DNA from: Eledone cirrhosa | Taxonomy: Eukaryota | NCBI GenBank assembly: GCA_964016885.1 | Contig: OZ024743.1 | Location: 124,868,001-124,932,000, forward strand | Reading direction: 5' to 3' | Length of the DNA stretch: 64,000 nucleotides | The notes under the pieces: model-generated | The model's input: only the letters and a program-made list of their open reading frames with translations | The model's database searches: none | What the model was told of the DNA's origin: nothing | In this document: piece after piece, positions 5,786-62,128 of the stretch | Layout of the letters: each line of letters begins with the position of its first letter | Position numbering within the stretch: position 1 is the first letter of the stretch | Position numbers and translations under genes: made by a program

Positions 5786-6860
5786 AAACGGAAAAAATGA
5801 AACAAAATTTCATTTCTCACTCTTAGTACGGCTGTTACTTAAATATAAGTATGTATACGTACATACATATATGTATACAGACGTATAGTAGTATGTATAT
5901 ATATACATACATGCACACATATATATATATGTACGTATGGATTTACCGAACATTTATTATAATGCTCGGTGTGTTTGTAAACAAACATCCCGAATTAAGC
6001 CGTATAGTGTCTAGCAACCATCGTTGCTCATTTGTTCAACACTGACAAAGGATCGATGCACTAGTTTCAAGCTTATTAGCTATCGTCAGCACTGTATACC
6101 TTCCTGCCAGATGATTGAACATCTGAAAGTATATAATTTCCTTAAGCATATTAACGGCTGAGCAGCCTAATTTGCATATCGAGTGAGTTAATCGGCCGGG
6201 CGCACCGAAAACAATAAACGGAAAAAATGAAACGAAATTTCATTTCTCACTCTTAGTACGGCTGTTACTTAAATATAAGTATGTATACGTACATACATAT
6301 ATGTATACAGACGTACAGTAGTATGTATATATATATACATACATGCACACATATATATATGTACGTATGGATTTACCGAACATATATTATAATGCTCGGT
6401 GTATTTGTAAACAAACATCCTTATATTTGTAAACAAACATACTTATATTTAAGTAACAGCTGTACTAAGAGTGAGAAATGAAATTTCGTTTCATTTTTTC
6501 CATTTATTGTTTTCGGTACGCCCCGCCGATTAACTCACTCAATATGCAAATTAGGCTGCTCAGCCGTTAATATGCATAAGGAAAGTATATACTTTCAGAC
6601 GTTCAATCATCTGGCAGGAAGGTATACGGTGCTGACGATAGCTAGTTCCTTTGTCAGTGTTGAACAAAAGAGCAACGATGGTTGCTAAACACTGTACGGC
6701 TTAATTCGGGATGTTTGTTTACAAACAGACCGAGCATTATAATAAATGTTCGGTAAATCCATACGTACATATATATATATATGTGTGTGCATGTATGTAT
6801 ATATATACATACTACTGTACGTCTGTATACATATATGTATGTACGTATACATACTTATAT
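5786..6860. repeat. Retrozyme-like family A: ~1.5 tandem 430-bp units (minus sense) plus one inverted unit
   Basis: AAACGGAAAAAATGAAAC recurs at 5786 and 6216 (period 430); 6438-6860 is the reverse complement of a full unit; the unit carries a minimal HHR and an octamer ATGCAAAT. Confidence 0.8.
6054..6094 (-). ncRNA. Minimal type I hammerhead ribozyme, mutated copy (GUG triplet)
   Basis: Minus strand: cagtg CTGACGA tAGCTaataAGCTt GAAAC TA GTG catcg. Confidence 0.6.
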
Positions 6861-6871
6861 ATATATATATG

Positions 6872-7200
6872 TGAGGCACATGGCTTAGTGGTTAGAGCAT
6901 TGGCCTTGCAATCGAAAGGTTGTGAGTTCAATTCTCAGACCGGGTGATGTGTTGTTTCCTTGAGCAAGACACTTTATTTCACATTGCTCCAGTTTACTCA
7001 GCTGTAGAAATGAGATGATAGGGACTGAGGTCTATATCATTCCACTGCAAAGTGGTCGTGGAGGTGCCACGGCAAAAAAGCACCCAGCACTCACTGTAAA
7101 TGAGGTTGGTGTTAGGAAGGGCATTCAGCTGTAGAAATCAAGCCAGAATCAGTTCCCGTCCCACCCTTGCAAACAGGAAAAAGCGGACGTAAAATGAAGA
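6872..7200 (+). mobile_element. Full-length CORE-type tRNA SINE with RTE-derived 3' tail
   Basis: A-box TGGCTTAGTGG, B-box GAGTTCAATTC, CORE-like CCTTGAGCAAGACACTT...CAGTTTACTCAGCTGTAGAAATG; tail matches the LINE 3' UTR at 49163-49380. Confidence 0.85.
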
Positions 7201-7216
7201 TATATATATGTATATA

Positions 7217-7410
7217 GAAAGCACCCAGCCCACACTGTAAATGTGGTTGGCATTAGGAATGGCATCCAGCCATAGAAAACCAGCCAGAAACACTCCTATA
7301 TGAGCGAGACACGGTCACCCGACACAACTTGCCTCAAAATAGGATCCGTCTAACCCATGCCAGTGTAGAGGATGGACGTTAATTGATGATGATGATGATG
7401 ATGATGATGA
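7217..7410 (+). mobile_element. RTE/SINE 3' tail fragment ending in (GAT)n
   Basis: GGAATGGCATCCAGCC...AACCCATGCCAG...GGACGTTAA(TGA)n. Confidence 0.6.
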
Positions 7411-8659
7411 CATACTGTGAAGATGTTTGACTTAGGAATTAAGGTGTTAAAATCACTATTGTAAGGTTATGAGTTTGATTACTGGGCAAGGCCTTGAGGA
7501 AGCTACTTCATTTCATGTTGCTCCAATTCACTCGGCTGAAAGAATGTGTAACAATAGCAGTTCAAGGTTAACTTTATAACAGACCAGAATCACATCCAGG
7601 GGGAAGTCTGGTACTCTTAGTTGCTTAGAATAGGGGCTTAGCTTCTGGGTTTGAGACAGACTTTTTAAAACATATGTATAATTTACTATTACTCATCACA
7701 TCCACCATAATAAAAATACCCTCAAGCAAAATTAGTCTGACAGAATTTGTATGTAAGGTTGGCCTTTTGAATTACAAGTCCACTCCATCTAACAGGTTTT
7801 CAGACTGTTTCTATCTATCTAATTTCACTCACATAGTAAGGGTTTTTTTCAAGAAATTCAAGATTGAGATGCAAGGAAGTTGATGTATTTAAAACCAGTC
7901 AAACCCATGCCACTGTGGAAAATAAGACATAAAACTACCAGTGTGTGTATGTGTGGGTATGTGTTTTATGTCTTTTGTCTAGATGTTGCATCAGTATCTT
8001 CTCCTGACTGCAGAATTAATCTACAAAATGAAGACATCAGTATTCAAAATGTGATCTTTGTAATTGCCAACAAAATGCCTTACCAATAACCTAATTTCCT
8101 GTCATGTAGCAACCAAGTGAAATTATTTTCTGGACTTGCCTTATATTTTTATTTTTTTCTATTTTATTATTATTTCTCTTATCTTTTTCCATAATTATCA
8201 ATGCTATGTTTTTTGTTTTATCAAAAATGAATGTCCAAGAAATAAAACTCTATAAGAATAAGATAATACACTGATTTACTATTTATTTTTGCTATTCTAT
8301 CTATTGCATAATGCTTATTTTATTGTCATTATCAATAAATGAAATAATATAATCAATTGATGATTTCTGTGATATTCTGACTTTCAATTTCTCAAATACT
8401 TAACCCCTTCAATATAATCAACTCTTGCAGTGTACTTAGATAAAAATATTAAAATAAATTGCAATGAACACACTTTCAACACCAACCCACTTCAGACTAC
8501 CTCTACTGAAGTGTCCAAATTTAAATTCAAATCTTCAACTGAAATCATATTATTAACATGAAAGATAAGAAGATAGTATTAGGTTTCAACAGGAAAATGC
8601 ATGGCTTATTGGTTAGGGTGAACTCAAAACACAAAGAGCTGGAACAAATATTGGTTTTT

Positions 8660-59078: not shown

Positions 59079-59389
59079 ATATGTATATATATATATATGT
59101 ATATATATATATATATGTGTGTGTGTATATATATATATATGTATGTATATATATATATATGTATGTATATATATATATATATGTATATATATATATATAT
59201 ATATGTATATATATATATATATATATATATATATATATATATATGTATATATATATATATATATATACATACATATATATATATACATACATATATATAT
59301 ATACATACATATATATATATACATACATATATATATATACATACATATATATATATATATATATATATATACACTCATATATATATATA

Positions 59390-60090
59390 TAAGCATGTAT
59401 ACGTATATACATATATGTATACAGACGTACAGTAGTATGTATATATATACATACATGCACACATATATATATATATGTACGGCTAAATTCGGGTTGTTTG
59501 TTTACAAACAAACCGAACATTATAATAAATGTTCGATAAACCCATACGTACATATATATATGTGTGTATGTATATATATATGCATACTACTGTACGTCTG
59601 TATACATATATGTATGTACGTATACAGAGTGAGAAATGAAATTTCATTTCATTCTTTTCCATTTATCGTTTTCGGTACGCCCGGCCGACTAACTCACTCG
59701 ATATGCAAATTAGGCTGCTCAGCCGTTAATATGCATAAGGAAAGTATATACTTTCAAAAGTTCAATCATCTGACAGGAAGGTATATAATGCTAACGATAG
59801 CTAATAAGCTCGAAACTAGTTTATTGTTCCTGTGTCAGTGTTGAACAAAAAGGCGACGATGGTTGCCGAACACTGTACGGCTTAATACGGGCTGTTTGTT
59901 TACAAACAAACCGAACATTATAATAAATGTTCGGTAAACCCATACATACGTATATATATATGTGTGCATGTATGTATATATATACATACTACTGTATGTC
60001 TATATACATATATGTATGTACGTATACATGCTTATATTTAAGTATCAGCCGAACTAAGAGTGAGAAATTTCATTTCATTTCATTCTTTTC
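59390..60090. repeat. Retrozyme family A: short inverted partial + ~1.4 tandem units (HHR at 59786-59826 with CTAACGA mutation)
   Basis: GTACGGCT.AA..CGGG.TGTTTGTTTACAAAC recurs at ~59477 and ~59875. Confidence 0.85.
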
Positions 60091-60821
60091 TCTCTATATA
60101 TATATATACACACACACACATATATATATACACATATATATATATATACTCATATATATATATATATATATATATACTCATATATATATATATATATATA
60201 TATATACACACATTACACACATATATATATACACATTACACACATATATATACATATATATATATACATATATATACACATTCCACACATATATATATAC
60301 ACATTACACACATATATATACATATATATATATACATATATATATATACATATACATATATATATATACATATATATATATATACATATATATATACATA
60401 TATATATATATACATATATATATACATATATATATATATACATATATATATACACATATATATATATATATACACATATATATATATATATATATACACA
60501 TATATATATATATATATACACATATACACATATATATATACATATATATATATACACATATATATATACACATATATATATACATATATATATATACACA
60601 TATATATATACATATATATATATACACATATATATATACATATATATATATACACATATATATATACATATATATATATATATATATATATATACACATA
60701 TATATATACATATATATATATACACATATATATATACATATATATATACATATATATATACATATATATATATATATATATATATATATATATATATATA
60801 TATATATATATATATATATAT

Positions 60822-61020
60822 GGCAACACAGTAAAAACCTCCCAGACCCACACTGTAAATGTGGTTGGTGTTAGGAAGGGCATCCAACTGTAGAAAACCT
60901 GCCAGACAGTCCTATGCGAGCAAGAATATCACTCTTGCCTCAAGTGGGACTACCCCCGTCCAAACCCATGCAAGCGTGGAACACGGACGTTAAACGTTGA
61001 TGATGATGATGATGATGATA
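60822..61020 (+). mobile_element. RTE 3' UTR end
   Basis: Matches 53482-53679. Confidence 0.85.
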
Positions 61021-61223
61021 CATATATATATATATATACATACACAGTTCAAGAGTAACCAATCTTAAAGAGGGAGATTGAGATAGTAGAGGAGATATGA
61101 GAGGAAAGATTGGTGAGTTAGTTAGAAGCCAAAGCGTAAAGGCATGTGCTCAATGTGCAATATGCAGTAGAAAGCAGCTAGGTGGCTGGGTTCATGCAGA
61201 GGTTAGGTGTGCAGAGCTGGAAA

Positions 61224-62128
61224 TATTCATTAGTTAAGCAAAACAAGACCACAAATTTCACAAGGAAGACATTATTAAAAGATTGTCAACATATTTAGTT
61301 TGATGCAAAGAATGTAGAGAATAATAATAATAATAATATTAATAATAATATTGCCCGTTTACAATTGTTTCGCTACTCCATATAATATTTCTGGATCAGA
61401 TGACTATGTATCATAATTGATCTGGTTCAGTTGAAAATAATTAACTTAACTAATGAATATATATATACATATATATATACATATATATATACACATATAT
61501 ACACACACACATATATATATATACACATATAAAAAACAGAGTGGCTCATCGGAACTCAAAGGAATATAAATTAAAATAATGTTACATAATATAATGTTCC
61601 ATATATTAGTTTTTACTATGGTGCCTTTGTTTCATCAGCTGTCAGCCATAATCAAGCAGTACTCATCTGTCGAGGCTGCATTGTGTGAGATCTGCCTATG
61701 GTTACCCATAGGCAGATCTCACACAATGCAGCCTCGACAGATGAAGGCAGATCTCACAAAATGCAGCCTCGACAGATGAGTACTGCTTGATTATGGCTGA
61801 CAGCTGATGAAACAAAGGCACCATAGTAAAAACTAATATATGGAACATTATATTATGTAACATTATTTTAATTTATATTCCTTTGAGTTCCGATGAGCCA
61901 CTCTGTTTTTTTAAATATGTTAATTATTTTCAACTGAACCAGATCAATTATGATACATAGTCATCTGATCGAGAAATATTATACGGAGTAGCGAAACAAT
62001 TGTAAACGGGCAATATTATTATTATTATTATTCTCTACATTCCTTACATCAAACTAAATATGTTGACAATCTTTTAATAATGTCTTCCTTGTGAAATTTG
62101 TGGTCTTGTTTTGCTTAACTAATGAATA
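61224..62128. mobile_element. ~900-bp palindrome of two head-to-head PLE 3' ends (related to 38975-39370)
   Basis: Arms are reverse complements with apex TGCCTATGG-TTAC-CCATAGGCA at ~61693-61714; ATTCATTAGTTAAGCAAAACAAGACCACAAA matches 38975 onward. Confidence 0.85.
61887..62007 (+). ncRNA. Variant HHR (CCGAUGA core) with ~75-nt stem II loop
   Basis: gtt CCGATGA GCCACTCTGT ... ACGGAGTAGC GAAAC AATT GTA / aac. Confidence 0.55.

Follow-up and report, generated by a model that had tools for sequence, protein, structure and literature searches.

Insertions of Penelope-like elements (PLEs) show characteristic architecture. An inverted 5'-truncated copy, tails and targeting of (TA)n tracts are given as canonical traits, with the Hydra clade included, and this clade is defined by a GIY-YIG domain with a CxCX5C linker, by RWK and DKT motifs and by the (TA)n target (Craig et al. 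2021, PMC8557442, in its treatment of these groups). On AT-rich DNA, a purified PLE cleaves both strands and extends them, and in vitro its RT starts at two internal sites, which define the tail, the start site having no homology to the target (Frangieh et al. 2024, PMC11167929). In the same work, the asymmetry of a tailed and a tail-less copy, together with the fixed internal start, is given as unique to PLEs. Non-autonomous elements are also assigned to PLEs, such as the Chlamys element MRC1, with pseudo-LTRs (pLTRs) and head-to-tail insertions (PMC8557442, in the part on these elements).

Metazoan non-LTR retrozymes are characterized as non-coding, with GC below 50%, a unit of 150-450 nt, a type I hammerhead with a palindromic stem III, a head-to-tail junction and highly self-paired RNA, and they form long tandem arrays. 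PLEs are named as strong candidates for their mobilisation (Cervera and de la Pena 2020, PMC7229834), in a paper whose main text does not contain the word "inverted". The same conclusion, that PLE machinery mobilises animal retrozymes, is reached in the preprint of Li, Clavereau and Pollet (10.64898/2026.07.22.740005), where the evidence as presented consists of co-occurrence and pLTR homology in vertebrates, with inverted copies and tails unused and no octopus included. Mobilisation of retrozymes by PLEs has therefore already been proposed and argued, and the support described here is evidence of a different type, the insertion scar, which was not found in use for this purpose in the literature.

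Results

The window is a 64-kb stretch of Eledone cirrhosa contig OZ024743.1, and its features are collected in Table 1. All of the inverted pairs named in an earlier note on this DNA are present, namely those of PLE1, PLE2, A1-A3, family C, the mini-element (family M) and the palindrome at 61 kb. An inverted copy adjoins the 5' end in 7/14 insertions defined as PLE, by hammerhead or by repeat, and in 0/22 RTE and SINE insertions (Fisher p=4e-4), in a count from one window with small numbers and hand-set boundaries, which excludes family M since the inversion led to its discovery. The best inverted self-match within 120 nt of the 5' end scores 24 for RTE/SINE, versus 46-213 in the positives. 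The earlier observation that RTE and SINE insertions are free of this geometry holds for an abutting self-copy, but four loose cases are present: a 109-nt RTE 3' end 875 nt off across a TA array (52145-52253), a 102-nt SINE 5' piece 174 nt off (58262-58363), a 27-nt RTE end 214 nt off (about 27010-27036) and a SINE and an RTE that meet head to head without a spacer (29885/29886). Counting the three that lie across TA arrays gives 7/14 versus 3/22 (p=0.026). No inverted copy is found at the Hydra-like PLE pieces 38972-41795, 27490-28980 and 11073-11474, at the family A relative 51602-52018, at the family C copy 47797-48392, or at two other hammerhead elements (55495-56232 and 47119-47440). PLE-type, RTE and SINE insertions all lie in (TA)n tracts, where a target-site duplication is unreadable.

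The possibility of assembly error, raised earlier, is not supported, because the arms are 93-98% identical and not 100%. Divergence between arms is 4.6% in the PLEs and 1.6-7% in the small elements, with overlapping ranges. No strand-change joint is found in sequencing reads among the 15 joints listed of 334.

The signature is sharper than first noticed, as a fixed tail boundary adds to the bare inversion. In the inverted pairs one arm always lacks a 3' tail of 35-80 nt and ends at an internal TA(T) site of fixed position, and this stop site is homologous in 3/3 family A and 4/4 family M insertions. At 12/12 tail-less ends examined, 2-5 nt of TA type overlap the flank, with a mismatch in one. 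The tail-less inverted arm is present in three of four family A, one of two family C and all four family M insertions. Because the asymmetry is reported as PLE-specific, and RTE and SINE insertions in the same TA arrays lack it, the link to PLEs is stronger than that given by inversion alone.

Table 1. Features of the 64-kb window, with arm comparisons.
Feature	Position	Strand	Remarks
A1 tailed copy	5786..6420	-	428-nt unit (6213-5786) + 207-nt partial tandem; hammerhead decayed, GUG at cleavage triplet
A1 inverted tail-less copy	6437..6858	+	About one unit; starts and ends at same internal TA site; 96.2% identical to main copy; 22-nt deletion within hammerhead
Diverged family M insertion	24352..24548		Same tailed/tail-less inverted geometry; absent from the earlier note's list
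Family M insertion	30984..31103		Tail-less inverted piece + tail-only piece; no overlap in element coordinates
PLE1 short copy	31198..32379	-	3' 1.2 kb; ~52-nt tail; 86-nt deletion; adjoins long copy
PLE1 long tail-less copy	32380..35225	+	5'-truncated RT + GIY-YIG, CX4CxxC-type linker, stop codons; arms 95.4% identical (1071/1123 aligned letters)
PLE2	36003..38500	-	Hydra-clade-like, CxCX5C linker; 5'-truncated, frameshifted; 36003-36162 possible tail
PLE2 inverted tail-less copy	38502..38959	+	Adjoins 38500-36163 (-), 95.4% (437/458); hammerhead-like motif 38794-38902, stem II enlarged by 82-nt insert, core position 9 is U
PLE3	38972..41795	-	Hydra-clade-like; 5'-truncated at DKT motif; no inverted copy
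Family C insertion 2	47797..48392	+	Direct partial tandem; no inversion; unstructured (z 0.1)
Diverged family A relative	51602..52018	-	Canonical hammerhead 51895-51939; same hairpin order (folding z -11.6); no inverted copy
Family C insertion 1	53868..54240		Tailed copy 54074-53868 (-), tail ~35 nt; tail-less inverted copy 54075-54240 (+); arms 98.0% identical (150/153); hammerhead core represented by 5' half alone
A2 inverted tail-less copy	57274..57502	-	94.0% identity; private alleles common to partner
A2 tailed copy	57500..57942	+	One unit from head-to-tail junction; folding z -6.2
Predicted type I hammerhead, family A	57623..57665	+	Core intact; stem I 6 bp, stem II 4 bp, palindromic stem III 2 bp; no G10.1-C11.1 pair
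Family M tail-less copy	58196..58363	-	58196-58255 joined to inverted 102-nt piece 99% identical to neighbouring SINE
Family M mini-element	58905..59078		Tailed copy 59040-58905 (-), tail ~80 nt; 29-nt tail-less inverted copy 59047-59075, 27/29 identical
A3 inverted tail-less copy	59388..59478	-	~90 nt; 96.7% identity
A3 partial tandem + one unit	59476..60090	+	Hammerhead core mutated
Palindrome left arm	61044..61697	-	PLE3-like 3' UTR; TA-rich insert 61454-61531; possible tail 61044-61222
Palindrome right tail-less arm	61745..62126	+	77.6% to PLE3 3' UTR; hammerhead-like motif 61887-62007, 96-nt stem II insert; arms 98.4% identical (379/385)

PLE1 and PLE2 had been taken for autonomous-type elements with an inverted copy of the 3' end. 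The geometry stands, but both are 5'-truncated, with stops or frameshifts that break them, and indeed every PLE in the window is broken. In PLE1, which appears Neptune-like by its linker motif, the tail sits on the short copy and, as a correction, the ORF-bearing long copy is the tail-less one; a decayed hammerhead lies in the long copy near 34993-35035. PLE2 and PLE3 are Hydra-clade-like by motif, with a C-terminal GIY-YIG domain, the CxCX5C linker and a (TA)n target, and both copies are truncated before RWK. The ten nearest longer relatives contain RWK in nine cases, DKT in six and CxCX5C in six. PLE3 ends at the same site as the tail-less arm of the palindrome, and the match between the two has a z of 38. 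By homology of the 3' UTR, the palindrome is best read as a truncated copy of a Hydra-clade PLE, which likely moved in cis.

Family A has a unit of 417-443 nt (~430) with a GC content of 33-36% and no LTR. No conserved ORF is found in its copies, the longest Met-ORF being 30-94 aa, and the two copies with a folding z in Table 1 fold better than shuffles. A hammerhead descriptor gives 10 matches, versus a mean of 0.25 and a maximum of 1 in 40 shuffles, while an Rfam search found no hammerhead. Two-sided changes occur in 11/30 ribozyme-arm pairs, mostly from one diverged copy. The core is intact at one of the four hammerhead positions of A1-A3, that at 57623..57665, and again at 51895-51939 in the diverged relative; G10.1-C11.1 is missing throughout A1-A3. 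Those core letters that the A1 inverted copy lacks are present in 904 reads (depth 4212 there) and in 69 contigs. The family is of high copy number, with a raw-read depth in the thousands versus 0-29 on the last seven flank bins (RAD-biased reads).

The same head-to-tail junction is seen three times, a fourth family A copy has it at its 5' end, and it is spanned by a contig of a second organism. The insertions hold 1.0-1.5 units, and no locus carries two direct hammerheads, unlike the element at 55495-56232, which does. Two copies amount to one unit (within ~12 nt) counted from their own, differing start sites, and none stops at the ribozyme cut. Only TA-rich low complexity is in common between family A and the PLE 3' ends in the window. 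Judged by sequence, family A is the only convincing non-LTR retrozyme here that would need a helper, with a predicted hammerhead.

The scar of family A is also borne by families C and M, in which it would fit movement in cis as well as in trans. Neither gives a match to a complete hammerhead, M having at most a decayed 3' half, and both fold no better than shuffles. Comparison of families A, C and M with the four PLE 3' ends in the window reveals no shared 3' or pLTR sequence, the palindrome alone giving a match. Families C and M may be truncated ends of PLEs outside the window.

Discussion

The insertions described here resemble those of Hydra and Neptune PLEs, as presented in PMC8557442 and PMC11167929, in the inverted 5'-truncated copy, the partial tandem, the optional 3' tail, the (TA)n targets and the hammerhead close to the 3' end. 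The tailed and tail-less ends match the two RT start sites that have been published for a PLE in vitro. The tails are longer, 35-80 nt and possibly up to 180 nt versus 30-40 nt in canonical PLEs as described there, and further differences are the TA microhomology at the ends and the stem II inserts of 82-96 nt in the hammerheads of PLE2 and the palindrome. Family A agrees with metazoan non-LTR retrozymes in all of the traits listed above from PMC7229834 except the arrays, in place of which it forms dispersed insertions of 1-1.5 units in (TA)n, accompanied by a tail-less copy in head-to-head orientation. It is also similar to the MRC1-type elements. These are algal, however, and according to the same part of PMC8557442 generally share 3' sequence with their autonomous partners, whereas family A has no match in the window and has a hammerhead.

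The copies of family A were probably written into TA microsatellites by a PLE endonuclease and RT acting in trans, and the palindrome would be a product of the same process, likely in cis. PLE is thus the likely helper of family A, although no sequence partner is present in the window and all PLEs there are broken. Since no pLTR homology is detectable in the window, it is the scar that ties family A to PLEs. The earlier proposal of PLE mobilisation of small RNAs in trans is hence retained for family A, but not for the palindrome, itself a PLE 3' UTR, nor for families C and M, which lack an intact hammerhead and are possibly PLE ends.

The sequence itself shows the geometry, the microhomologies, the junction, a fixed end of the tail-less arm and the lack of a conserved ORF, and the following route may be suggested. 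A PLE protein would nick both strands of a (TA)n tract, and each free 3' end would pair with a TA(T) stretch of 2-5 nt in the RNA and prime cDNA, with one start at the tail end and a second at a constant position ~60-65 nt inward. These cDNAs would extend toward each other and be joined, to yield tailed and tail-less copies head to head. On a circular or multimeric template the RT would cross the monomer junction, which would give the partial tandems. Several observations speak against this reading of family A: a single one of the four hammerhead positions in A1-A3 has an intact core, G10.1-C11.1 is absent from it and Rfam gives no match; half of the PLE-type insertions have no inversion; four loose RTE/SINE cases are present; the ends show TA microhomology, unlike the in vitro PLE start site; and the inverted arms of A2 and A3 are subsets of their neighbours with the same private alleles, which a DNA-templated fold-back predicts as well.

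It is rather unlikely that all of the small elements, with family A among them, represent 5'-truncated pLTR ends of full-length PLEs outside the window, moved in cis. Such an origin holds by homology for the palindrome, families C and M are short and unstructured, and 24 of 57 Xenopus retrozyme families are reported as homologous to known TEs, nearly all of them PLEs, at the pLTRs (10.64898/2026.07.22.740005, in its comparison with TEs). In family A, by contrast, the 5' start is fused to the element's own 3' end through a single constant junction, as seen across independent insertions and also in a second organism, ORF sequence lies upstream of 0/3 copies, and, as a weak point, no common alternative upstream sequence was found among the 24 loose ends listed of 2344. 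Host break repair after insertion, in which the end of a break within the neighbouring (TA)n would invade the element through microhomology at an internal TA and copy it backwards, is improbable. It would account for the TA microhomology at all tail-less ends and for the locus-private alleles that the arms have in common, and the inverted SINE piece at 58262-58363 resembles a templated copy of the flank. It is at odds with the 0/22 count for RTE and SINE in the same TA arrays, with the constant start site of each family, with the tail-less arms at 30984 and 58196, which have no neighbour to copy from, and with PLE1 and family C insertion 1, where the tail-less arm contains letters absent from the tailed one.

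Twin priming is a mechanism of L1. A role of RTE machinery, young and abundant here, in moving the small RNAs, with inversions arising by twin priming, is very improbable, even though RTE also targets (TA)n, its copies are up to 99.6% alike, one SINE/RTE junction is head to head and the family M insertion at 30984 has a non-overlapping inverted geometry. RTE copies and the SINE never have an abutting inverted copy or tail of this kind. The SINE, whose 3' half is in common with RTE (z 33-53), has the RTE 3' end and an (ATG)n-type tail, and family A has neither. Hardly any weight can be given to MITE-like TIR DNA transposons in TA targets or to assembly chimeras. The inverted ends are bordered by TA, assemblies are known to have difficulty with PLE-type structures, and a 176-nt duplicate elsewhere in the window (46458-46633) is 100% identical, but the arms are unequal because of the tail and short of full identity, and the inner junctions vary among copies of one family, which is not the pattern of flush TIRs.

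The identity of the enzyme that returns animal ribozyme circRNAs to genomes has so far been a matter of proposal, since 2020, and of argument from co-occurrence and homology, in 2026, rather than of mechanistic proof. A PLE-specific scar on an ORF-less, high-copy retrozyme allows a cheap genome-wide test, and the in vitro PLE assay that already exists could take family A as a defined substrate, consisting of the RNA, two predicted start sites and a TA target. Ribozymes are not mentioned in a 2026 Octopus repeat annotation, and the present findings suggest that palindromic repeats in octopod TA arrays may be wrongly classed as MITEs or as repeats of unknown type. A tentative and somewhat doubtful extension of PLE mobilisation is that family A exists as an octopod ribozyme circRNA of high abundance, which would be copied directly as a circle by a PLE dimer from two fixed start sites. 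If this is true, animal retrozymes in general could be assigned to PLE machinery by a sequence test for the tail-less inverted scar, even without PLE homology, and the scar would provide genomic evidence for the route by which such circRNAs return to DNA.

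Inverted pairs in the window

The window consists of nested retroelements sitting in (TA)n arrays. The inverted pairs named in the earlier note were all borne out by self-comparison and pairwise alignment (see the table). Their arms are less than 100% identical and end unequally, which argues against a fold-back in the assembly; independent copies of family A, a short repeat with three insertions (A1–A3), share 89.8–92.5% identity.

Features of the window, with gap-free arm identities from pairwise alignment
Feature	Position	Arm identity	Tail (nt)
PLE1 (Penelope-like element)	31198-35225	95.4%	~52
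PLE2	36003-38959	95.4%	putative, possibly up to 160-180
PLE3	38972-41795		
Other pieces matching PLE proteins	27490-28980; 11073-11474		
Long-insert hammerhead-like motifs	38794-38902; 61887-62007		
Palindrome	61044-62126	98.4%	putative, possibly up to 160-180
TA run in palindrome left arm	61443-61531		
A1	5786-6858	96.2%	~60-65
A2	57274-57942	94.0%	~60-65
A3	59388-60090	96.7%	~60-65
Diverged A relative	51602-52018		
C1	53868-54240	98.0%	~35
C2	47797-48392		
Mini-element (family M)	58905-59078	27/29	~80
Other family M copies	30984-31103; 58196-58363; 24352-24548		
M copies with shared 5′ end position	58196-58255; 30984-31036; 58986-59040		
Tandem hammerhead unit	55495-56232		
TA-flanked element	47119-47440		
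Hammerhead of TA-flanked element	47250-47314		
SINE/RTE join	29553-30379		
tRNA-derived SINE (one of five copies)	58538-58876		
RTE-internal direct copy and its source	46458-46633; 45715-45890		
84-nt direct repeat	12459-12917		
Perfect hairpin	20657-20701		

A reverse self-copy near the element 5′ end was sought in 39 insertions with boundaries set by hand. These comprised 14 recognised by a PLE ORF, by homology to PLEs, by a hammerhead or as members of a repeat family, together with 16 RTE, 6 SINE and 3 family M insertions. Seven of the 14 were positive (PLE1, PLE2, the palindrome, A1–A3 and C1), and the negative seven are three other PLE pieces, the diverged A relative, C2 and two further hammerhead elements. 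No abutting inverted self-copy was found in the 16 RTE and 6 SINE copies (p=4e-4 versus 7/14). There are four loose RTE/SINE cases: a young RTE 3′ end 875 nt off, a 27-nt RTE end 214 nt off, a SINE 5′ piece 174 nt off and a SINE/RTE head-to-head join; p becomes 0.026 when three are counted. Family M was excluded from the count because it was discovered via its inversion; two of its insertions were positive and one (30984) negative, since its arms do not overlap.

The tail-less arm

In each pair one arm ends before the 3′ end of the other, which thus carries a tail. The tail-less arm stops at one homologous site in 3/3 family A and 4/4 family M insertions, including a diverged M copy (24352-24548) absent from the earlier note's list. 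At all 12 tail-less ends examined the element overlaps the TA flank by 2–5 letters, one with a mismatch. The tail-less arm of PLE1 is the long copy. For PLE2 and the palindrome, the putative tails resemble neither each other nor Hydra N-termini.

Inverted 5′ copies, optional tails of 30–40 nt and (TA)n targeting are described as PLE traits by Craig et al. (PMC8557442). According to Frangieh et al. (PMC11167929), a PLE in purified form can cleave AT-rich DNA and extend it on both strands, is a predicted dimer and begins reverse transcription at two internal sites, the spacing of which equals the tail. The start site described there is non-homologous to the target, whereas the ends in the window show TA microhomology.

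Family A as a candidate retrozyme

The family A unit is 417–443 nt long with a GC content of 33–36% and has no conserved ORF. Its head-to-tail junction lies at one fixed point in three places in the window, and a contig from another organism spans it too. The dimensions of its type I hammerhead agree with the canonical metazoan form described in PMC4209133, and the hammerhead descriptor yields 10 motifs in the window versus a mean of 0.25 in 40 shuffles. The folding z is −6.2 for A2 and −11.6 for the diverged relative, with a similar order of hairpins, and two-sided changes at 11 of 30 pairs of the ribozyme arm are mostly owed to the latter. Only one of four hammerhead cores in A1–A3 is intact, and it has no G10.1-C11.1 pair. 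At gathering score Rfam called only a tRNA-like SINE head and no hammerhead, and no ribozyme was present in the 150 matches listed of 194 at E≤10 in 57200-62200. Core decay, the missing pair and the absent Rfam call count against the predicted ribozyme activity.

Public reads (4 of 23 runs) were compared against 6425-8000. The intact core letters are common in them, with 904 reads at a depth of 4212 and 69 contigs. Family A is high-copy; a single RAD-seq run, which is biased as a measure, puts it at about one quarter of SINE depth. No strand-changing joint was present among the 15 listed of 334, and the tail-less site falls in skipped repeat. Neither metagenome nor viral contigs contained a match to the family A patterns. 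A Helitron-like nature was rejected, as the sequence runs ~280 nt beyond its CTAG.

Two other elements, both devoid of inversion, contain hammerheads. The tandem unit, a structured sequence of 487 nt (z −6.0) with a direct partial tandem of 243 nt, resembles a retrozyme dimer: it contains two hammerheads in succession, with 56 nt inserted in stem II. The TA-flanked element, 320 nt between TA arrays and single-copy in the window, carries a type I hammerhead that is well formed, with stems I and II of 8 and 10 bp.

Palindrome and families C and M

The palindrome is 77.6% identical to the PLE3 3′ UTR, both end at the same place, and it has a long-stem-II hammerhead-like motif in common with PLE2. 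It is itself PLE sequence and most simply a truncated PLE copy, and mobilisation in trans is not needed for it. Within its left arm lies a TA run that terminates in a 15-nt opposite-orientation copy of the element's own tail-less end.

No complete hammerhead was found in families C and M, and they fold no better than shuffled sequence; they may be ends of PLEs located outside the window. A type II hammerhead in family C and a twister in family M were rejected by eye, as the core or stems did not match the motifs. Three M copies have their 5′ limit at the same position, ~55 nt before the tail-less site. This points to a fixed RNA 5′ end, which a ribozyme cut may have made, the upstream part lying outside the window.

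PLEs of the window

The closest named relatives of the PLE proteins are from Octopus vulgaris (62% identity) and Argonauta hians (43%), which makes an octopod origin of the window likely. Pfam was marginal (RVT_1 E 0.002, GIY-YIG E 0.06) and too weak, so the PLE proteins were recognised through homolog searches. The RWK, DKT and CxCX5C motifs, published marks of the Hydra clade, occur in the proteins matched by PLE2, PLE3 and the two other pieces, while PLE1 has a CX4CxxC-type linker and is, on motif grounds, Neptune-like. Every one of these PLEs is truncated and broken, and hence none is a present helper. No relatives of PLE3 were confirmed in metagenome contigs. The long-insert hammerhead-like motifs, of Hydra-like PLE, have an 82–96 nt stem II insert, a palindromic stem III and one core change each; standard descriptors would overlook both.

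The window yielded no partner PLE: families A, C and M have no sequence in common with its four PLE 3′ ends; the SINE 3′ half is clearly common to RTE. The scores of family A against PLE4 (z 3.8 sense, 8.3 antisense) are likely TA-rich low complexity, with no masked BLAST match.

The SINE, present with four other copies, has a 3′ half matching RTE 3′ UTRs, at 92–96% for the subfamily represented by 24552 and 49164, and forms with RTE a SINE/RTE pair of the ordinary kind. At the SINE/RTE join a full SINE (−) stands head to head with a 5′-truncated RTE (+) with no TA spacer, which may reflect an RTE insertion from two templates. A direct copy of 176 nt matches RTE-internal sequence on the other side of a TA array at 100% identity and is either a recent duplication or an assembly artefact. 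The 84-nt direct repeat (98.8%) surrounds ~375 nt directly upstream of an RTE that is almost full-length, and no hammerhead was found in it. The perfect hairpin (20 bp) lies amid decayed sequence.

Proposed mechanism

Twin priming is an L1 process. For the window elements, nicks would arise in the two strands of a (TA)n tract, each nicked end would prime on RNA through a short stretch of TA pairing, at the tail end in one case and at the inner site in the other, and the two cDNAs would meet head to head. Private alleles are common to the arms of one locus, so both templates would come from one source. Two further variants in A1 are common to the main and tandem pieces and absent from the inverted arm, hinting at two template molecules. 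The ribozyme cut is traversed by 3/3 main family A copies, and the template would thus be either a circle or a multimer left uncut. Measured from their respective start sites, which differ, the inverted arm of A1 and the main copy of A2 each span one unit; in these two copies, noticed after the fact, this would favour a circle.

Host fold-back repair could also create inverted arms, and could account for A2 and A3 alone. It leaves unexplained the fixed stop site and the contrast with RTE and SINE copies; moreover, the M tail-less arms at 30984 and 58196 have no neighbour as template, and those of PLE1 and C1 carry letters absent from the partner. For family A, mobilisation by a PLE acting in trans is likely. 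The earlier note had tied all small elements with an inverted 5′ copy to PLEs in this way, which was right in direction and too broad in scope, the palindrome being PLE sequence.

Relation to published work

That PLEs mobilise retrozymes, protein-free hammerhead-ribozyme repeats, is already in print. Cervera and de la Pena defined non-LTR retrozymes and regarded PLEs as strong candidate mobilisers (PMC7229834). Li et al. argued for PLE mobilisation in vertebrates from co-occurrence and pLTR homology, and the available text uses neither inverted copies nor tails (bioRxiv 10.64898/2026.07.22.740005). The Octopus repeat annotation, in its available part, lists active PLEs and no ribozymes (PMC13282606). 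In the openly accessible main texts and listings searched, no use of an insertion scar to tie retrozymes to PLEs was found. Nor was a cephalopod retrozyme, although the supplements of PMC7229834 and the bioRxiv paper may list some or show inverted copies. As evidence for PLE mobilisation, the tail-less inverted scar is both new and testable.
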